34,178 nucleotides of DNA from a virus (taxonomy: Duplodnaviria; Heunggongvirae; Uroviricota; Caudoviricetes): the IMG/VR virus record IMGVR_UViG_2526164599_000011; one strand, given 5' to 3'. Under the pieces are notes generated by a model, which did not search any database, was not told the DNA's origin, and saw nothing but the letters and a program-made list of their open reading frames with translations. Position numbers and translations under genes: made by a program. How positions within the stretch are numbered: the first letter of the stretch is position 1; the number at the start of each line of letters is the position of its first letter. Positions 3,238 to 27,628 of this stretch are shown one piece after another.

Positions 3238-3509
3238 GTATTCGTATTGAAATTGGCGAACGTTATGTCGTTACCAGTGACAGCTTTCAGTTTATTCTCC
3301 ACGAGAAAAAGAGAGCGGAAAGCGGTAAAAACGCCGGTCAGGAATGGCTGGCGGTGGTTGGTTATTACCCGAAATTAGGCCAGCTCGTTTCCGGCCTGAT
3401 GCATCACGATATTCTGACCGGAAGCGCAAAATCTTTTGCTGATTTAAACGCGCAGGTTGAGCAACTCAGCAAGCGTTGTTCAGAGGCTTTTGGCTCATAT
3501 GGCCGTTAA
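3234..3509 (+). CDS. Hypothetical early protein (P2 orf83-like position)
   Basis: 91-aa ORF; its start overlaps the previous stop and its end overlaps the A start. Confidence 0.5.
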   Translation: MSIRIEIGERYVVTSDSFQFILHEKKRAESGKNAGQEWLAVVGYYPKLGQLVSGLMHHDILTGSAKSFADLNAQVEQLSKRCSEAFGSYGR

Positions 3510-5775
3510 AGCCTCCGGGCGTTTTGTCCCTCCGTCAGCATTTACCGCAGGCACCGGTAAGGCGTTTACCGGTGCTTATGCATGGAACGCGCCACGCGAG
3601 GCTGTCGGGCGCGAAAGACCTCTTACACGTGACGAGATGCGTCAGGTGCAAGGTGTTTTATCCACGATTAACCGCCTGCCTTACTTTTTGCGCTCGCTGT
3701 TTACTTCACGCTATGACTACATCCGGCGCAATAAAAGCCCGGTGCACGGGTTTTATTTCCTCACATCCACTTTTCAGCGTCGTTTATGGCCGCGCATTGA
3801 GCGTGTGAATCAGCGCCATGAAATGAACACCGACGCGTCGTTGCTGTTTCTGGCAGAGCGTGACCACTATGCGCGCCTGCCGGGAATGAATGACAAGGAG
3901 CTGAAAAAGTTTGCCGCCCGTATCTCATCGCAGCTTTTCATGATGTATGAGGAACTCTGCGATGCATGGGTTGATGCGCATGGTGAAAAAGAATCGCTGT
4001 TTACGGATGAGGCGCAGGCTCACCTGTATGGTCATGTTGCTGGCGCTGCACGTGCTTTCAATATTTCCCCGCTCTACTGGAAAAAATACCGTAAAGGACA
4101 GATGACCACGAGGCAGGCATATTCTGCCATTGCCCGTCTGTTTAACGATGAGTGGTGGACTCATCAGCTTAAAGGCCAGCGTATGCGCTGGCATGAAGCG
4201 TTACTGATAGCTGTCGGGGAGGTCAATAAAGACCGTTCTCCTTATGCCAGTAAACACGCCATTCGTGATGTGCGTGCGCGCCGCCAGGCAAATCTGGAAT
4301 TTCTTAAATCGTGTGACCTTGAAAACAGGGAAACCGGCGAGCGCATCGACCTTATCAGTAAGGTGATGGGCAGTATTTCTAATCCTGAAATTCGCCGGAT
4401 GGAGCTGATGAACACCATTGCCGGTATTGAGCGTTACGCCGCCGCAGAGGGCGATGTGGGGATGTTTATCACGCTGACCGCACCGTCAAAGTATCACCCG
4501 ACACGTCAGGTCGGAAAAGGCGAAAGTAAAACCGTGCAGCTTAATCACGGCTGGAACGATGAGGCATTTAATCCAAAGGATGCGCAGCGTTATCTCTGCC
4601 GTATCTGGAGCCTGATGCGCACGGCATTCAAGGATAATGATTTACAGGTTTACGGTTTGCGAGTCGTCGAGCCACACCACGACGGAACGCCGCACTGGCA
4701 TATGATGCTTTTTTGTAATCCACGCCAGCGTAACCAGATTATTGAAATCATGCGTCGCTACGCGCTCAAAGAGGATGGCGACGAAAGAGGAGCTGCGCGA
4801 AACCGTTTTCAGGCAAAACACCTTAACCGGGGCGGTGCTGCGGGATATATCGCGAAATACATTTCAAAAAACATCGACGGCTATGCACTGGATGGTCAGC
4901 TCGATAACGATACCGGCAGGCCGCTGAAAGACACTGCCGCGGCTGTTACCGCATGGGCGTCAACGTGGCGCATTCCGCAATTTAAAACGGTTGGCCTGCC
5001 GACAATGGGGGCTTACCGTGAACTACGCAAATTGCCTCGCGGCGTCAGCATTGCTGATGAGTTTGACGAGCGCGTCGAGGCTGCACGCGCCGCCGCAGAC
5101 AGTGGTGATTTTGCGTTGTATATCAGCGCGCAGGGTGGGGCAAATGTCCCGCGCGATTGTCAGACTGTCAGGGTCGCCCGTAGCCCGTCGGATGACGTTA
5201 ACGAGTACGAGGAAGAAGTCGAGAGAGTGGTCGGCATTTACGCGCCGCATCTCGGCGCGCGTCATATTCATATCACCAGAACGACGGACTGGCGCATTGT
5301 GCCGAAAGTTCCGGTCGTTGAGCCTTTGACTTTAAAAAGCGGCATCGCCGCGCCTCGGAGTCCTGTCAATAACTGTGGAAAGCTCACCGGTGGTGATACT
5401 TCGTTACCGGCTCCCACACCTTCTGAGCACGCCGCAGCAGTGCTTAATCTGGTTGATGACGGTGTTATCGAATGGAATGACCCGGAGGTCGTGAGGGCGC
5501 TCAAAAGCGCATTAAAACACGGCCTGAGAAGACCAAACCGTCAGCAAAGAAACGGAAACCCGTTAAAACCACATGAAATTGCACCATCGGCCAGACTGAG
5601 CCGGTCGGAGCGATTGCAAATCACCCGTATCCGCGTTGACCTTGCTCAGAATGGAATCTTGCCCCAGCGATGGGAGCTTGAGGCGCTGGCGCGTGGGGCA
5701 ACCGTAAATTATGACGGGAAAAAATTCACGTATCCGGTTGCTGATGAGTGGTCGGTTTTTTCAATTAAACAATAA
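3499..5775 (+). CDS. A: Replication initiation protein A (rolling-circle HUH-type endonuclease, P2 gpA-like)
   Basis: 758 codons from ATG 3499 (ORF extends upstream to 3457); P2 gpA is about 761 aa. HUH-like motif PHWHMMLF and the tyrosine-bearing segment GYIAKYISKNIDGY are present. Last gene of the early operon. Confidence 0.85.
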   Translation: MAVKASGRFVPPSAFTAGTGKAFTGAYAWNAPREAVGRERPLTRDEMRQVQGVLSTINRLPYFLRSLFTSRYDYIRRNKSPVHGFYFLTSTFQRRLWPRIERVNQRHEMNTDASLLFLAERDHYARLPGMNDKELKKFAARISSQLFMMYEELCDAWVDAHGEKESLFTDEAQAHLYGHVAGAARAFNISPLYWKKYRKGQMTTRQAYSAIARLFNDEWWTHQLKGQRMRWHEALLIAVGEVNKDRSPYASKHAIRDVRARRQANLEFLKSCDLENRETGERIDLISKVMGSISNPEIRRMELMNTIAGIERYAAAEGDVGMFITLTAPSKYHPTRQVGKGESKTVQLNHGWNDEAFNPKDAQRYLCRIWSLMRTAFKDNDLQVYGLRVVEPHHDGTPHWHMMLFCNPRQRNQIIEIMRRYALKEDGDERGAARNRFQAKHLNRGGAAGYIAKYISKNIDGYALDGQLDNDTGRPLKDTAAAVTAWASTWRIPQFKTVGLPTMGAYRELRKLPRGVSIADEFDERVEAARAAADSGDFALYISAQGGANVPRDCQTVRVARSPSDDVNEYEEEVERVVGIYAPHLGARHIHITRTTDWRIVPKVPVVEPLTLKSGIAAPRSPVNNCGKLTGGDTSLPAPTPSEHAAAVLNLVDDGVIEWNDPEVVRALKSALKHGLRRPNRQQRNGNPLKPHEIAPSARLSRSERLQITRIRVDLAQNGILPQRWELEALARGATVNYDGKKFTYPVADEWSVFSIKQ

Positions 5776-5919
5776 TGGCTACTGCCGCAGCGTTGTGGGA
5801 ATGCTATAGTGTTTGTAGAATTATCCCATGAAAAACAACTAATTAATCTGTTTTTCATATTGAACTAATTTTTTATGGCCACAGTTGTTAAAAAGTGAGA
5901 ACATAATCTTGTTCAAAAC

Positions 5920-5960
5920 CTGCTTCTATATACGGAGGCTTTCGCTATAATACGCGGTCG
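5920..5960 (+). promoter_or_regulatory. Putative sigma70-type promoter for the methyltransferase gene
   Basis: TATAAT at 5946-5951 inside an AT-rich tract, about 25 nt upstream of ATG 5977; -35 element is weak (CTTCTA around 5923-5928). Strong SD AGGAGG at 5966-5971. Confidence 0.25.
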
Positions 5961-5976
5961 GTTTTAGGAGGGGATA

Positions 5977-6921
5977 ATGCCAACAGTAGTTTCACTTTTT
6001 TCTGGATGCGGTGGTTCCGATGCGGGGGTTCTGAGAGCTGGCTTTGATGTGCTTATGGCCAACGATATCTTGCCGTATGCGCGCGATGTTTATATTGCCA
6101 ATCATCCAGAAACTGATTACATTTTAGGCAATATTGCTGATGTAACTACTTTTCCTAAATCTGATTTGCTAGTAGGTTGTTATCCATGTCAGGGATTCAG
6201 CCAGGGTGGTGCGCGTAAGGCCGATCGAAAAATTAATACTCTTTATTTAGAGTTTGCTAGAGCTTTAAACAATATAAAGCCTAAAGCTTTTATAGTAGAA
6301 AACGTGTCTGGTATGGTTAGAAAAAACTTCGAGCATTTGTTATCTGACCAGATCAGGGTTTTTACTGAAGCAGGTTATGCTGTTTCAGCAAAAGTTTTGA
6401 ATGCGGCTGAATATGGAGTAGCGCAGGAAAGAAAAAGAATATTTATCGTAGGAATCCGTAATGATTTCAAAGTTAAGTACGAGTTCCCTCAGCCAACTCA
6501 TGGGCCGGCGACTGGCGTCAACTATGTTACTATTAAAGATGCTATAGGGCATTTACCTGAATGGCCAGAAGGTGAATTTTATGATATGGGGTTCCATTGG
6601 TATTATATGTCTCGCAATCGTCGCCAAGATTGGGATCAAATTTCAAAGACAATAGTTGCTAATGCAAGGCATATGCCGTTGCATCCTATCAGTCCTTCGA
6701 TGGAGAAAGTAAGAACTGATGAATGGAGGTTTGTTGAGGATCGGAGAGCTCGCAGATTCAGTTTTCGAGAGGCAGCACTATTACAAGGGTTTGAGGATCT
6801 AGTGTTTCCCGAAACAAATGCTGCAAGTCTTGGCATGAAATACACGGTGGTTGGTAATGCAGTGCCTCCGCCGCTTTTTGAAGCTGTAACGAAGGCATTG
6901 CCAATAGAATTATGGGATTGA
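5977..6921 (+). CDS. DNA (cytosine-5)-methyltransferase
   Basis: 314 aa with canonical C5-MTase motifs: FSGCGG (motif I, AdoMet binding), GCYPCQGFSQGG (motif IV, catalytic PCQ), ENV (motif VI), QERKR (motif VIII), GNAVPPPL near the C-terminus (motif X). Strong SD; gene is visibly more AT-rich than the phage backbone. Confidence 0.9.
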   Translation: MPTVVSLFSGCGGSDAGVLRAGFDVLMANDILPYARDVYIANHPETDYILGNIADVTTFPKSDLLVGCYPCQGFSQGGARKADRKINTLYLEFARALNNIKPKAFIVENVSGMVRKNFEHLLSDQIRVFTEAGYAVSAKVLNAAEYGVAQERKRIFIVGIRNDFKVKYEFPQPTHGPATGVNYVTIKDAIGHLPEWPEGEFYDMGFHWYYMSRNRRQDWDQISKTIVANARHMPLHPISPSMEKVRTDEWRFVEDRRARRFSFREAALLQGFEDLVFPETNAASLGMKYTVVGNAVPPPLFEAVTKALPIELWD

Positions 6922-6928
6922 TAAGCTA

Positions 6929-7921
6929 TTAAGGCTCTGGATTTAATGTATAAAGTTCTTCTTCAAATTCGCGAAACCAATCAGAGGTAGTTATCGCTTC
7001 CCATTGGTTTGCCTTATCAAGTAGATATATGATCCTCAACCTATCTAATAATAATACACCAGCGGTTGCATGTGTGCTTACCCATTCGCCATTTGCTTCC
7101 CGATAGAAAACAGGCGTGAACATTGTTGATGGATGCTGGAAAGCAATTTGGAAATAGGTGGTCAGTTTTAACACGTTAGCCTCTAATGTTTTGCTTGGCC
7201 ACCCTGTTTCTTGTGCACCACATTGACCAAGAATTCCATAGTTGCTAGTTTGACCATCAGGAAATTCCACTGTAGCAATTAGGTCAAACCCAGCATCACC
7301 AGATGTGGGAGCTTTATTTATTTCCCTTGTGTTTAAACTACAAACTCCAAGATCTTTTCCTAAAATTTGTAGAGCATTCCGAAGATTCGTTCCATAATAT
7401 TTTTGCCTATCATCGGAGTTAGCATCAAAAATTCTTACGGTGCCATGTGCAGGTAAGAGAGAAATCATTGCAACTTTACATACTCTGGCAAAGCTCTTTG
7501 CCCAACGTTGTGCTGCTCCTCTAATCGACTTAAAGGATCTAAGTCTAGAGCAACAAAGGAGAAAAACATATATTCTTTGTTGTTGGTTTAGATTTTCTTT
7601 AATAATTATCTCATCACCTGAAATTATAAATGGATATATCTTTCCAAGAGCGCTTTCTCTATATTCGAGTTGTGTCCAAACATCTTCTAGTTGCTCTTCA
7701 AAACGATCATTTCTCTCTGCGTCTCCATCAATTTCTTCTTCAAAATTACATTCTTCATCAATTTCTTCAACACTTGTCATGCCGAATTTTCTTACTGAAT
7801 CTAAATCATTTTTATGCAGAGAGTTACGTCCGATATAATTAATCACCGTGAGTAACTCGGCTAAATCTGCAAACAAATGGGGAGAGTTGGGATGCATAAC
7901 TCCTACTTCAAAAGTCATCAT
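6929..7921 (-). CDS. Hypothetical protein, family not recognised; convergent with the MTase, downstream partner of the ParB-like gene
   Basis: About 330 aa; GTG at 7924 then ATGs at 7921 and 7918; start overlaps the stop of the upstream ParB-like gene (TGA 7908-7910). Acidic N-terminal region (EEIDEECNFEEEIDGDAERNDRFEEQLED). Stop TAA at 6929-6931 is 7 nt from the MTase stop. AT-rich. Confidence 0.7.
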   Translation of the reverse strand: MMTFEVGVMHPNSPHLFADLAELLTVINYIGRNSLHKNDLDSVRKFGMTSVEEIDEECNFEEEIDGDAERNDRFEEQLEDVWTQLEYRESALGKIYPFIISGDEIIIKENLNQQQRIYVFLLCCSRLRSFKSIRGAAQRWAKSFARVCKVAMISLLPAHGTVRIFDANSDDRQKYYGTNLRNALQILGKDLGVCSLNTREINKAPTSGDAGFDLIATVEFPDGQTSNYGILGQCGAQETGWPSKTLEANVLKLTTYFQIAFQHPSTMFTPVFYREANGEWVSTHATAGVLLLDRLRIIYLLDKANQWEAITTSDWFREFEEELYTLNPEP

Positions 7922-9029
7922 CACCTCTGCTATTTTTCTCTGCTATTTCAGAACCTATAAGCTTAATATGTTTATTGATTCTTCGTGCTACTTCATGAGC
8001 CTGTCTATCATACTCTACTGTGGCAACCATGCCTGCTGCATCTATCAAAGCCGCTTCAACTTGATAAAGTAACTGGAGAAAGTCCTTAGTAATATCAGAT
8101 GTCAATTGGTAGGCCACTGCGAGTGGAGCCCCCATTCGGAATTGCTCCAATGCCTTAGGGCTACTAACAACAGCAGCTAATTCTCTTAAATTACGTGACT
8201 CTCCAACACGAGTTTTTTTATCCTCACCTTTTTTATATAACCACTCAGTTAGCTCTTTTATTTCTTTGTTCTTTAAGCTATTAGAGTTGATAATAGGATG
8301 ACTTGGTATTGTGTCTCCATCGTCTTCGATTGAAACTCCGACAAATTGGCCTAACCGCTCATCAGCAAGTGCTGTTGATAATACTGAAAATTTAATCGTT
8401 TCTTCATCTAGTTTTTCAATACCATAAAAATCATTTTCTTTAATGATTTCATACACCGCTAAAGCGTCTAGGTTACGCTTGATATGATCCCTACGACTGC
8501 CAATAGCTCTGGCAACCTCATAGTAGCGTAGCATCGGATCCTGATTTGCATTGGTATAATCAAAAAGCTGTTTAATATATCGAGCTTTTGATAAGGGCTC
8601 CCATTGTTTGACACCAGTAATATGTCTGAAACCAAGATACGGAAGAATCTCTTCTCTTGTTTGGCGCTCAATGACAGGAACACGATCGACTGTATGTTTT
8701 GCATTTGATGCAATTTCTCGTAGTCGAGCACTTGGATTTTCACATAGTGTCGGATCGCGTAATAATTTAACTGCGGATAGGCGACGGTTTCCTTCAACTA
8801 CAATGTACTTCCCCGGCGCGACACTGTCAGGAATGACAATCAATGGTTCTCCAGGGAAAAAACCATTTTCCGCAATAGCACTCATTAGATCTTCGATAGA
8901 TGTTGAGGTTGCTATGTAGTTAATCATTCCCAATTGGTCACGAGACACGCCTTCAGGAAGTCTTGGGTTTTCTGTGTCAAGTTCCAAATCATCTAGCGGA
9001 ACATAAAGTATTTCTGAATCAGCAATCAT
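7908..9029 (-). CDS. ParB/Srx-like N-terminal domain protein (ParB-type nuclease/NTPase fold), function unknown
   Basis: 373 aa; N-terminal ILYVPLDDLELDTENPR...GEPLIVIP...YIVVEGNRRLSAV matches the ParB box I / GxxRxxA box II pattern. SD GGAG 7-10 nt upstream of ATG at 9029. AT-rich; first gene of a two-gene leftward operon. Confidence 0.75.
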   Translation of the reverse strand: MIADSEILYVPLDDLELDTENPRLPEGVSRDQLGMINYIATSTSIEDLMSAIAENGFFPGEPLIVIPDSVAPGKYIVVEGNRRLSAVKLLRDPTLCENPSARLREIASNAKHTVDRVPVIERQTREEILPYLGFRHITGVKQWEPLSKARYIKQLFDYTNANQDPMLRYYEVARAIGSRRDHIKRNLDALAVYEIIKENDFYGIEKLDEETIKFSVLSTALADERLGQFVGVSIEDDGDTIPSHPIINSNSLKNKEIKELTEWLYKKGEDKKTRVGESRNLRELAAVVSSPKALEQFRMGAPLAVAYQLTSDITKDFLQLLYQVEAALIDAAGMVATVEYDRQAHEVARRINKHIKLIGSEIAEKNSRGDDDF

Positions 9030-9255
9030 CTGGATCTCCGTTGAACATGTCTACGAGAAGGAGCACAAAGTTATTTCATAACATGCAATATACTCATTCT
9101 GTAGCCATAAATGAATTATTCATGATGTAAGATTCGCGTTGATGTGCGTGAATTCGCAAGTAATTTTATAGCAAGGTTTGATTGGGTATCGTTAGCACTG
9201 GCGCGGTTTCAACGTATTCATGCACCTGCATTAAAACCGACCCATGAAGCGGGCG

Positions 9256-9274
9256 GGCGAGGCGGGGAAAGCAC
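9256..9274. other. Probable cos site (19-nt cohesive end of P2-type phages)
   Basis: GGCGAGGCGGGGAAAGCAC at 9256-9274 matches the P2 cohesive-end sequence as I recall it, and lies about 170 bp from the end of portal gene Q where P2 cos sits. Sequence identity is from memory and not verified. Confidence 0.6.
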
Positions 9275-9443
9275 TGCGCGCTGGCGGTGGTGCTGATTTT
9301 ATTTTTTCAGCGTCTGAGCGCGTCGTGATGGCGTTTAGATTGTTAGCCGGGGCGTTGGTGTGTCTGCGGGCTGTTTTGTGCGGTGGTGAGCGTGTGAGAG
9401 CGTGATGGCGGGTTGTAAAAAAGCCGCCCGCAGGCGGCGATGT

Positions 9444-10478
9444 TCAGCCGTTGTCAGTGTCCAGTGAGTAGTTTTTAAAGCGGATGACCTCCTGACCGAG
9501 CCAGCCGTTTATCTCGCGGATCCTGTCCTGTAACGGGATAAGTTCATTGCGGACAAAGACCTTTGCCACTTTCTCAATATCACCCAGCGACCCGACGTTC
9601 TCCGGCTTGCCACCCATCAACTGAAAGGGGATGCGGTGCGCGTCCAGCAGGTCAGCGGCGCTGGCTTTTTTGATATTAAAAAAATCGTCCTTCGTCGCCA
9701 CTTCACTGAGGGGGATAATTTTAATGCCGTCGGCTTTCCCCTGTGGGGCATAGAGAAACAGGTTTTTAAAGTTGTTGCGGCCTTTCGACTTGACCATGTT
9801 TTCGCGAAGCATTTCGATATCGTTGCGGTCCTGCACGGCATCGGTGACGTACATGATGTATCCGGCATGTGCGCCGTTTTCGTAATACTTGCGGCGGAAC
9901 AGCGTGGCCGACTCATTCAGCCAGGCAGAGTTAAGGGCGCTGAGATATTCCGGCAGACCGTACAGCTCCTGATTAATATCCGGCTCCAGCAGGTGAAACA
10001 CGGAGCCGGGCGCGAAAGGTGTCGGCTCGTTGAAAGACGGCACCCACCAGTAAACATCCTCCTCCACGCCACGACGGGTATATTTGGCCGGTGAGGTTTC
10101 CAGTCTGATGACCTTACCGGTGGTGCTGTAACGCTTTTCCAGAAACGCATTACCGAACACCAGAAAATCCAGCACAAAACGGCTGAAATCCTGCTGGGAA
10201 AGCCACGGGTGCGGGATAAACGTTGAAGCCAGAATATTACGTTTGACGTAAATCGGTGAGCTGTGATGCACGGCAGCACGCAGACTTTTTGCCAGGCCGG
10301 TAAAGCTGACCGGTGGCTCATACCATCTGCCGTTACTGATGCACTCGACGTAATCCAGAATGTCACGCCGGTCGAGTACCGGTACCGGCTCACCAAAGGT
10401 GAATGCCTCCATTTTCGGGGCGCTGGCGGTCATTGTTTTTGCCGCAGGTTGCGGTGTTTTCCCTTTTTTCTTGCTCAT
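9444..10478 (-). CDS. Q: Portal protein (P2 gpQ-like)
   Basis: 344 aa, identical in length to P2 gpQ; leftward, adjacent to cos, followed by the terminase large subunit with start/stop overlap at 10478-10480. Confidence 0.9.
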   Translation of the reverse strand: MSKKKGKTPQPAAKTMTASAPKMEAFTFGEPVPVLDRRDILDYVECISNGRWYEPPVSFTGLAKSLRAAVHHSSPIYVKRNILASTFIPHPWLSQQDFSRFVLDFLVFGNAFLEKRYSTTGKVIRLETSPAKYTRRGVEEDVYWWVPSFNEPTPFAPGSVFHLLEPDINQELYGLPEYLSALNSAWLNESATLFRRKYYENGAHAGYIMYVTDAVQDRNDIEMLRENMVKSKGRNNFKNLFLYAPQGKADGIKIIPLSEVATKDDFFNIKKASAADLLDAHRIPFQLMGGKPENVGSLGDIEKVAKVFVRNELIPLQDRIREINGWLGQEVIRFKNYSLDTDNG

Positions 10479-24475: not shown

Positions 24476-25003
24476 ATGATGCACTTAAAGAACATAAAAG
24501 CGGGTAACGCTAAAACACTGGAACAGTATGAGTTAACAAAGAAACACGGAGTTATCTGGCTTTACTCTGAGGACGGAAAAAACTGGTATGAGGAAGTGAA
24601 GAACTTTCAGCCAGACACAATAAAGATTGTTTACGATGAAAATAATATTATTGTCGCTATCACCAGAGATGCTTCAACGCTTAATCCTGAAGGTTTTAGC
24701 GTTGTTGAGGTTCCTGATATTACCTCCAACCGACGTGCTGACGACTCAGGTAAATGGATGTTTAAGGATGGTGCTGTGGTTAAACGGATTTATACGGCAG
24801 ATGAACAGCAACAACAGGCAGAATCACAAAAGGCAGCGTTACTTTCCGAAGCGGAAAGCGTTATTCAGCCACTGGAACGCGCTGTCAGGCTGAATATGGC
24901 GACGGATGAGGAACGTGCACGACTGGAGTCATGGGAACGCTACAGCGTTCTGGTCAGCCGTGTGGATCCTGCAAATCCTGAATGGCCGGAAATGCCGCAA
25001 TAA
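24476..25003 (+). CDS. G: Tail fibre assembly chaperone (P2 gpG-like)
   Basis: 175 aa (P2 gpG 175 aa); immediately downstream of H. Confidence 0.85.
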
Positions 25004-25218: not shown

Positions 25219-26118
25219 ATGAGTGGTATTCGTATAACTCAGGCTATTGATAACAATCAGATTTTAGTCAATGTAAATACTTTTAATTATAGTGTTAATC
25301 CCTATCCACTCAAATGTCCTGACCCAAATTGCTCTGCTCATTTGGTGTATGTCAAAAGCCATATTCGTCGGAGTTTTAATAAAACCTTGCATATCCCCGC
25401 CTTCTTTAGACTGGAAAAAAATTTCACGCATGACAAATTATGTCAGTATGGAACTTCAGGATTGAATACAATTTATGCAAGTGATTCCAGTCATGATATC
25501 AGCCGTGCGCTTGCCACAGGTAATAATATATTCCGTATACATATACTCGATGAAGATGATATCTCTAAATTAAGCAGAAAAGCTGCAGCTATGCAGGCAA
25601 ATCCACCTTCTGATACTACAGACCGCGTTTATGTCAAGAGAGGTCGGAAAGCCCCCTATGTGAAGAACATGGATAGCTTACGGGAGATCTATGAATATGG
25701 AAAAGCTCACCCCAACAAGAGAAACAGCATAAAAATTGTTACTGGAACAAGTACTGTAACGTGGTCTGATTTTTTCTATGAAACAACGCAGTTAGAACGA
25801 TTGTCAACTTACCTCCAGAAAGTAAAAATAGCTCAGGTTGCTGTAATTATGAAAGTGCATGTGGCGAGAATCCCTATGGCGAAATTTAATTATCGACACT
25901 TCATTGAAGGTTCGCCAATGAGGATAAAAGGGGGCTTTAATATATATCCTACGATTCAATTAGGAAATGTTACTCCAAAATTATTTCCGTTGAGTAGCAT
26001 TGTCATGGTACTCGGTAAATTTACTATTCCAACAAATAGAAAAATGATAATGGATCCAACATTTGAGCGTGAAGTCAGAACCATAGTTTCTAGTGAAGAG
26101 CAAGTGCTAATTCTTTGA
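25219..26118 (+). CDS. Hypothetical 299-aa protein, family not recognised; AT-rich cargo gene at the P2 Z/fun position
   Basis: ATG at 25219 with strong SD GGAGG; 299 aa; much more AT-rich than the flanking tail genes, with AT-rich non-coding DNA on both sides (25004-25218 and 26119-26437). Contains CPDPNCSAH near the N-terminus; no family assigned by eye. Confidence 0.7.
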   Translation: MSGIRITQAIDNNQILVNVNTFNYSVNPYPLKCPDPNCSAHLVYVKSHIRRSFNKTLHIPAFFRLEKNFTHDKLCQYGTSGLNTIYASDSSHDISRALATGNNIFRIHILDEDDISKLSRKAAAMQANPPSDTTDRVYVKRGRKAPYVKNMDSLREIYEYGKAHPNKRNSIKIVTGTSTVTWSDFFYETTQLERLSTYLQKVKIAQVAVIMKVHVARIPMAKFNYRHFIEGSPMRIKGGFNIYPTIQLGNVTPKLFPLSSIVMVLGKFTIPTNRKMIMDPTFEREVRTIVSSEEQVLIL

Positions 26119-26437: not shown

Positions 26438-27628
26438 ATGAGCGACTATCATCATGGCGTGCAGGTGCTGGAGATTAACGACGGCACCCGCGTCATTTCC
26501 ACTGTATCCACCGCCATTGTCGGCATGGTCTGCACGGCCAGCGATGCGGATGCGGAAACCTTCCCCCTCAATAAACCGGTGCTGATTACCAATGTGCAGA
26601 GCGCAATTGCAAAGGCTGGTAAAAAAGGCACGCTGGCGGCATCGTTGCAGGCCATCGCTGACCAGTCAAAACCGGTCACCGTTGTTGTGCGTGTGGAAGA
26701 CGGCACCGGCGACGACGAGGAAACGAAACTCGCGCAGACCGTATCCAATATCATCGGCACCACCGACGAAAACGGTCAGTACACCGGACTGAAAGCCCTG
26801 CTGGCGGCGGAGTCGGTAACCGGTGTTAAACCGCGTATTCTCGGCGTGCCGGGGCTGGATACCAAAGAGGTGGCTGTTGCACTGGCATCAGTCTGTCAGA
26901 AGCTGCGCGCTTTCGGGTATATCAGCGCATGGGGCTGTAAAACCATTTCCGAGGTGAAAGCCTACCGCCAGAATTTCAGCCAGCGTGAGCTGATGGTCAT
27001 CTGGCCAGATTTCCTCGCATGGGATACGGTCACCAGTACCACCGCCACCGCGTATGCCACCGCCCGTGCGCTGGGTCTGCGCGCTAAAATCGACCAGGAG
27101 CAGGGCTGGCATAAAACGCTGTCCAATGTCGGGGTAAACGGTGTTACCGGCATCAGTGCCTCTGTATTCTGGGATTTGCAGGAGTCCGGCACCGATGCTG
27201 ACCTGTTGAACGAGTCAGGTGTCACAACGCTGATTCGCCGTGACGGTTTCCGCTTCTGGGGTAACCGTACCTGCTCTGATGACCCGCTGTTCCTCTTTGA
27301 AAACTACACCCGCACCGCGCAGGTGCTGGCCGACACGATGGCTGAGGCGCACATGTGGGCGGTGGACAAGCCCATCACCGCAACGCTGATTCGCGACATC
27401 GTTGACGGCATCAATGCCAAATTCCGTGAGCTGAAAACAAACGGCTATATCGTGGATGCGACCTGCTGGTTCAGCGAAGAATCCAACGATGCGGAAACCC
27501 TCAAGGCCGGAAAACTGTATATCGACTACGACTATACACCGGTGCCTCCTCTTGAAAACCTGACCCTGCGCCAGCGTATTACCGATAAATACCTGGCAAA
27601 TCTGGTCACCTCGGTTAACAGCAATTAA
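26438..27628 (+). CDS. FI: Contractile tail sheath protein (P2 gpFI-like)
   Basis: 396 aa (P2 gpFI 396 aa); SD GGAG upstream; first gene of the FI-FII-E-T-U-D operon. Confidence 0.9.
   Translation: MSDYHHGVQVLEINDGTRVISTVSTAIVGMVCTASDADAETFPLNKPVLITNVQSAIAKAGKKGTLAASLQAIADQSKPVTVVVRVEDGTGDDEETKLAQTVSNIIGTTDENGQYTGLKALLAAESVTGVKPRILGVPGLDTKEVAVALASVCQKLRAFGYISAWGCKTISEVKAYRQNFSQRELMVIWPDFLAWDTVTSTTATAYATARALGLRAKIDQEQGWHKTLSNVGVNGVTGISASVFWDLQESGTDADLLNESGVTTLIRRDGFRFWGNRTCSDDPLFLFENYTRTAQVLADTMAEAHMWAVDKPITATLIRDIVDGINAKFRELKTNGYIVDATCWFSEESNDAETLKAGKLYIDYDYTPVPPLENLTLRQRITDKYLANLVTSVNSN

Follow-up and report, generated by a model that had tools for sequence, protein, structure and literature searches.

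The PD-lambda-5 system of Escherichia coli ECOR7, which comprises a 'ParB/HEPN' protein and a methyltransferase, has been validated experimentally and provides broad protection (Vassallo et al. 2022, PMC9519451). Its cloning required a Δmrr host and it was interpreted as a compacted restriction-modification (RM) plus abortive-infection (Abi) system; the HHpred table lists ParBc, a weak signal for DUF4145/HEPN and an adenine methylase of the D12 class (PMC9519451). PD-lambda-5 has two genes, with the effector region, weakly HEPN/DUF4145-like, fused to ParB in one protein of ~500 aa. In the GmrSD, BrxU and SspE systems, a nucleotide-binding domain of the ParB/Srx superfamily is likewise coupled to a DNA endonuclease for restricting foreign DNA; these systems use a DUF262 DGQQR variant together with a His-Me finger (DUF1524/HNH) nuclease, usually in a single protein, target modified DNA and carry no methylase.

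The window analysed here, a stretch of 34,178 nucleotides, is an E. coli P2-like prophage that, in the segment 5700-9500, matches strain TW10590 with 100% identity and ATCC 8739 with 99.6%. A low-GC cargo island (5776..9443; GC 0.38-0.42 versus 0.50-0.58 in the flanks) is situated between the P2 gpA replication gene (3457-5775) and the portal gene Q (9444-10478), a site corresponding to the tin/old locus, P2 defence hotspot #1 (PMC9519451, PMC9122126). The island contains three genes, encoding a C5 cytosine DNA methyltransferase (5977..6921, plus strand), the protein under study (6929..7924, minus strand) and a ParB-like protein (7908..9029, minus strand). Like PD-lambda-5, this is an E. coli accessory cassette combining a ParB-like module, a DNA methyltransferase and an effector, although the likeness is limited to the ParB module, the two systems differing in effector, in class of methylase and in number of genes. 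We found no literature description of, or experiment on, this triad, and our best reading is that it represents an unannotated, undescribed and fairly common RM-like system related to PD-lambda-5. With modest confidence, we favour the view that the gene at 6929..7924 encodes the DNA-cleaving subunit of this three-gene, RM-like anti-phage cassette carried as cargo in a P2 prophage hotspot. This explanation is based on the hotspot location, the conserved core of the protein, synteny, co-divergence and the homology of the ParB-like protein to the validated PD-lambda-5 protein.

Among 5426 complete E. coli genomes, the triad occurs in at least 188, in one of three allelic forms: that of the window in 48 genomes, the vB_EcoM-12474 / O145:H28-type in 36, and the Wφ-type (orf98–orf96–mth) in 104, E. 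coli W among them. The carriers thus include two laboratory strains, ATCC 8739 and W. The triad is also found in phage isolates, namely HQ103, vB_EcoM-12474II–V and Wφ, where it is always annotated as hypothetical. The only plasmid occurrence was one weak match.

Direct reading of the junction between the ParB-like gene and the gene under study (7908..7928, minus strand) revealed three in-frame candidate starts for the latter, GTG 7924, ATG 7921 and ATG 7918, as well as the ParB-like stop codon, TGA, at 7910-7908; the two genes therefore overlap by 17, 14 or 11 nt, respectively. Counted from GTG 7924 the product has 331 aa, but the true start is probably ATG 7918, giving 329 aa and an 11-nt overlap. 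RefSeq entry WP_089520486 (329 aa, named hypothetical) begins at this ATG, the equivalent Met is the first residue of most homologues in our alignment, and a Shine-Dalgarno sequence, AGAGG, is found at 7928-7924, spaced 5 nt ahead of it. An earlier note on this DNA had proposed translational coupling through a start/stop overlap of about 14 nt, which agrees with our range of 11-17 nt, depending on the start, and the overlap recurs in other genera. The convergence with the methylase gene described in the same note was likewise borne out, the two stop codons being 7 nt apart, as was a strongly acidic N-terminal stretch, in which 16 Asp/Glu occur within residues 52-81, although this stretch is variable among homologues and deleted in some.

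To follow the three genes across genomes, loci were drawn from a species-representative genome collection and from an IMG/VR scan, and their flanks were then searched locally. A ParB-like gene was found directly upstream of the nuclease homologue in all 42 loci with upstream sequence, and a HaeIII-like methylase gene adjoined the pair in 37 of the 40 loci that could be assessed. Specifically, the ParB-like gene was upstream in 15/15 genomic loci and in 27/27 viral loci seeded with distant family members, and the methylase was adjacent in 11 of 14 and 26 of 26 assessable loci, respectively. The loci, which often lie next to integrases, come from Burkholderia, Pseudomonas, Methylophilaceae, Halomonas, Acinetobacter, Acidovorax, Salmonella and IMG/VR prophages. 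Gene calls were examined for five loci, from a Burkholderia prophage, a Methylophilaceae island, the P2 hotspot of Salmonella, a Pseudomonas island adjoining an integrase gene, and Ferrovum. Each of them had the order ParB-like gene to nuclease gene, with an overlap of 11-14 nt and a convergent C5 methylase gene, whereas two methanotroph loci had a short gap in place of the overlap. Three loci, L016, L019 and L021, lacked an adjacent HaeIII-like methylase yet retained an intact or near-intact pair; an IS605/resolvase element lies downstream in L016, an ORF of 302 aa with no assigned function replaces the methylase in L019 (Crenothrix), and in L021 the nuclease is truncated at its C-terminus.

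Measured against the window's own three proteins, identities ranged from 24 to 60% for the nuclease and from 33 to 65% for the ParB-like protein, the more conserved of the two, and the two sets of values were strongly correlated (r = 0.97), a relation that extends down to ~27% for the nuclease and ~34% for the ParB-like protein. The methylase, on the other hand, stayed at 64-84% in 37 of 38 loci, with 47.5% in the remaining one (L025), and its identity did not follow that of the nuclease (r = -0.21). Since the identities of the pair fall together while that of the methylase stays at 64-84%, deeply diverged pairs adjoin essentially the same methylase. A near-constant methylase next to fast-evolving restriction genes is the pattern expected of a classical RM system under an arms race. 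The presence of the ParB-like gene upstream in every related locus and the parallel divergence strengthen the earlier proposal that the two proteins form a functional pair, and the recurrence of the HaeIII-like methylase across unrelated mobile elements and genera fits the proposal that the gene under study is the effector or restriction component of the cassette.

The methylase matches Pfam PF00145 (E=5e-65) and can be aligned with M.HaeIII over its full length, with residues 4-308 corresponding to 3-320 and the target-recognition region included (E=2.8e-48), so its specificity is probably GGCC or something close. We also considered the frequency of GGCC as a clue to specificity; it was 0.66 of expectation in the window, a value that would be informative only against an E. 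coli genome-wide baseline. The C5 methylase of the cassette differs in class from PD-Lambda-5_B, which is a Dam-like N6-adenine enzyme (PF02086). The cassette also shares features with Type II RM systems with HaeIII-like methylases (GGCC family), in which, as here, the methylase is conserved, the restriction genes diverge rapidly, and a convergent gene whose product has a restriction-endonuclease fold (here predicted) abuts the methylase gene. However, the restriction module of the cassette includes an obligatorily linked, translationally coupled ParB-like protein, and the sequence of its nuclease is not detectably similar to that of any restriction enzyme with a solved structure.

A word-indexed search with the protein under study retrieved 273 homologues of 50-60% identity from Gamma- and Betaproteobacteria, and an exhaustive search with its family retrieved 1194 cluster representatives at E<=1e-3. 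Among the matches listed, nearly all full-length relatives have ~300-365 aa, and the shorter entries are fragments. The numbers of homologues and their uniform size indicate that the ORF is not a chance one. In an alignment at ~25% identity, residues D20, E23, R89, Y97-P98-F99, D210, D214, Q234, C235, W242, D294, R295 and R297 are invariant and K245 is nearly so, delineating a conserved core, GDxGxD-x19-QC...W..K, whose positions are all invariant or nearly so. Searches of Pfam, NCBIfam and PADLOC with the protein gave no match, Pfam searches with 30 aligned family members, run at E<=10, produced nothing beyond sporadic chance matches, and a profile search of PDB sequences gave only coiled-coil noise. 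The two PHROGs matches, families 3984 and 14650, are both annotated as "unknown function".

In its predicted structure, the protein consists of a winged-helix/helical N-terminal part, a portion of which is matched by small winged-helix proteins, and a C-terminal domain with the core alpha-beta-beta-beta-alpha-beta fold of PD-(D/E)xK restriction-endonuclease-like nucleases. The lower-ranked fold matches of the model included NucC, Can2, Card1, EcoT38I, SgrAI, Cfr10I, AgeI and SdaI. A separate Foldseek search against the PDB gave MspJI as its only match, with a borderline score (E 0.03, probability 0.92). The invariant D214 begins a predicted strand at 215-219 and the invariant Q234 ends another at 229-235, positions that in the model coincide with the usual placement of a D...(D/E/Q)xK motif. 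The residue two positions after Q234, where the motif lysine would be expected (Q234-C-G236), is Gly or Ala in nearly all family members; K245 is a candidate stand-in for the missing lysine. If the domain is catalytic, K245 or some other residue would have to take over this function; alternatively, it may bind DNA without cutting it.

The nuclease-like core suspected in the earlier note therefore corresponds to a predicted PD-(D/E)xK fold, and the central stretch quoted there, which contains D210, D214, Q234, C235, W242 and K245, lies at its conserved centre. The remote-homology and structure comparisons suggested in that note agreed only in part, in that the fold was predicted but neither a match to a curated nuclease sequence family (e.g. 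Pfam Mrr_cat) nor a HEPN-like match was obtained. With an N-terminal DNA-binding part and a C-terminal PD-(D/E)xK part in ~300 aa, and MspJI as the best Foldseek match, the predicted protein resembles Mrr and MspJI, and by eye its GDAGFD-x19-QCG resembles GDGGID-x13-QAK of Mrr. However, alignment of the family profile by hhalign was significant neither with E. coli Mrr nor with the Mrr catalytic-domain profile (2.6% probability), so that we regard the motif as a lead and not as evidence of membership. Because the sequence-family matches were not significant, the protein is filed, on structural evidence, under the predicted PD-(D/E)xK fold and not under Mrr_cat or any other named sequence family. 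It differs from Mrr and MspJI also in the Gly or Ala replacing the motif lysine and in its linkage to a methylase, as opposed to a dependence on modification.

The ParB-like partner (373 aa) is made up of an N-terminal ParB/Srx domain, a helix-turn-helix (HTH), a helical C-terminal region and a conserved acidic tail, ...DDDxF, that closes the C-terminus. Its Pfam and TIGR ParB matches were sub-threshold, and its first ~190 residues matched 25 PADLOC PD-Lambda-5_A profiles (best E = 1.6e-28), with PDC-M38A of PADLOC matching as well. Invariant motifs in the family are NPRLP, the box-I-like SAIAENGFFPGEPL, and EGNRRL, the last of which aligns with GERRLRA of Helicobacter pylori ParB and represents canonical ParB box II. 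In the model, the protein has what is predicted to be the canonical fold of ParB, in which the GxxRR nucleotide-pocket motif is intact, followed by the HTH. Box III, ENLQR, is replaced by GFRHI, making the chemistry of nucleotide hydrolysis uncertain. This replacement, together with the association with nuclease and methylase genes at defence hotspots and the lack of a partition ATPase or parS context, distinguishes the protein from the CTP-dependent clamps ParB, KorB and Noc.

Known systems containing such modules differ from the cassette in the effector. In contrast to the fused protein of PD-lambda-5, the effector is here a separate protein with a predicted PD-(D/E)xK fold and no PADLOC match, and the ParB-like protein ends, after its HTH, in a helical C-terminus and not in a HEPN domain. 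A HEPN effector, which the description of PD-lambda-5 would suggest for the cassette, was considered and rejected, as neither the model of the protein under study nor that of the ParB-like protein gave a HEPN-like match. In contrast to GmrSD, BrxU and SspE, the cassette has a canonical N-terminal ParB domain (GNRR motif) with an HTH, its predicted PD-(D/E)xK nuclease is a protein of its own and a methylase is linked to the pair; the ParB-like protein has neither a DUF262 match nor a DGQQR motif.

The last observations bear on the idea that the pair, like the split GmrS/GmrD or Mrr and MspJI, is a Type IV-like enzyme attacking modified phage DNA, in which a ParB NTPase assists the nuclease, and that the methylase is an unrelated anti-restriction gene of the prophage. 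We consider this highly unlikely, as the methylase is linked in 37/40 loci from distant taxa and mobile elements, an m5C-directed nuclease next to an m5C methylase would be self-destructive, the DUF262/DGQQR motif and a His-Me finger nuclease are both absent, and the alignment with Mrr_cat was not significant.

Another possibility is an ordinary Type IIP enzyme. The protein under study would then be the sole cognate nuclease of the HaeIII-like methylase, and the ParB-like protein would be a transcriptional controller resembling KorB, in the role of a C protein, by which expression of the nuclease is delayed or kept low. The adjacent and convergent methylase gene, the predicted restriction-enzyme fold accompanied by a winged-helix domain able in principle to recognise DNA unaided, and the finding that KorB, a ParB-family repressor, is the best structural match of the partner are all compatible with this explanation. 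RM controller proteins, however, are typically small HTH proteins, whereas the partner has 373 aa, has kept every nucleotide-pocket motif of ParB, shows higher conservation than the nuclease, and is translationally coupled to and co-diverging with it; furthermore, the homologous ParB module of PD-lambda-5 is fused to an effector-like domain and not to a regulator. The constant coupling of the nuclease to a ParB-like protein whose nucleotide-pocket motif is intact likewise argues against a plain Type IIP enzyme, which we think unlikely.

We instead favour the RM-like cassette with a ParB-dependent cleaving subunit. In this scheme, the HaeIII-like C5 methylase would mark host and prophage DNA at its site, and the ParB-like protein would form one complex with the nuclease, the overlap of their genes ensuring a fixed ratio of the two. 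The ParB-like subunit may contact DNA through its HTH, with the nucleotide-binding ParB/Srx domain acting as a switch or clamp, and would license the PD-(D/E)xK domain to cut DNA without the methyl mark. A different outcome would follow if the pair were an abortive-infection effector, silent until phage infection or until loss or inhibition of methylation, and then degrading DNA indiscriminately and killing the cell. The methylase would in that case be an antidote or an addiction partner, along the lines proposed for PD-lambda-5 (RM plus Abi). We regard such an effector as improbable, in that nothing like a second-messenger sensor or a HEPN domain is seen in the predicted structures and the tight linkage of the methylase and the winged-helix domain suit site-directed restriction equally well. 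The abortive-infection and site-directed readings are not fully exclusive of each other.

A more specific form of the RM-like reading, which we put forward as a speculative possibility, is that a clamp of the ParB family, gated by CTP like ParB or KorB, loads on DNA, scans it and licenses the PD-(D/E)xK nuclease only on DNA without m5C, which would constitute a new class of nucleotide-dependent restriction. If so, the ParB clamp would do what a helicase, McrB or SMC motor does in the long-range restriction systems described so far, and a clamp-gated nuclease would also account for the role of the ParB module in PD-lambda-5. ParB-like modules recur in defence (PD-lambda-5, GmrSD, SspE, DndB and DpdB), with roles that in the literature covered here are debated or only proposed, and the triad, being compact and common and having an easily recognised methylase, is tractable for asking whether a canonical ParB fold gates a restriction nuclease. 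The triad, in which the pair diverges fast beside a nearly constant methylase, also provides a clean case for the arms-race evolution of restriction modules. The system would, in addition, be an RM-like barrier to gene transfer that has escaped annotation and is only half detected by current defence-finding tools.

The triad of ParB-like, nuclease and methylase genes also occurs in a deeply diverged version in phage Wφ (Wphi; orf98, orf96 and mth; NC_005056), with the nuclease and the ParB-like protein sharing only about 26% and 34% identity, respectively, with their counterparts in the window, whereas the methylases share about 77% identity. Among complete E. coli genomes, 104 carry this Wφ allele, those of E. 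coli W and KO11FL being two of them.

Gene content also varied at related loci carrying the ParB-nuclease pair. In two of them, L004 (Methylophilaceae; 9165-9929) and L005 (3165-4097), an extra gene for an HNH_2 (PF13391) endonuclease was located between the nuclease and methylase genes; its product, which is weakly similar to putative restriction endonuclease families, could act either as an additional effector or in Vsr-like repair. In Crenothrix sp. D3 (L019), the pair is intact and the HaeIII-like methylase is missing; the next gene after the pair, on the same strand, encodes a 302-aa protein (7092-8000) for which searches of Pfam, PADLOC and NCBIfam returned no match, and which may be an alternative gene for modification or immunity.

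The ParB-like protein of the window (7908-9029, minus strand) ends in an acidic …DDDxF tail that was conserved in alignment A2, with a near-invariant terminal Phe. Residues 369-373 are predicted to be disordered (pLDDT <50), and the tail looks like a short docking peptide, the partner of which is possibly the nuclease.

For the C5 methylase (5977-6921, plus strand), the top PADLOC match was DruM2|DruM, a profile for the methylase of Druantia (E = 1e-113), although no further Druantia genes were seen among the three genes of the low-GC island; automated tools could mislabel this methylase. Across the whole window, GATC was strongly scarce, with 38 sites observed versus approximately 136 expected (ratio 0.28), and GGCC ranked second among the depleted 4-mer palindromes (ratio 0.66); seven GGCC sites lie within the cassette itself.

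A second low-GC pocket (GC 0.387) of the window contains an ORF of 299 aa (25219-26118, plus strand), flanked by genes for tail-fibre assembly (24476-25003) and for the sheath (26438-27628). The ORF had no match in Pfam, PADLOC or NCBIfam and matched PHROG 7195, a family annotated as 'unknown function'. Its locus corresponds to the fun/Z locus, or P2 'hotspot #2', from which Vassallo et al. (PMC9519451) reported three defence systems. The ORF is a candidate for an uncharacterised defence gene.
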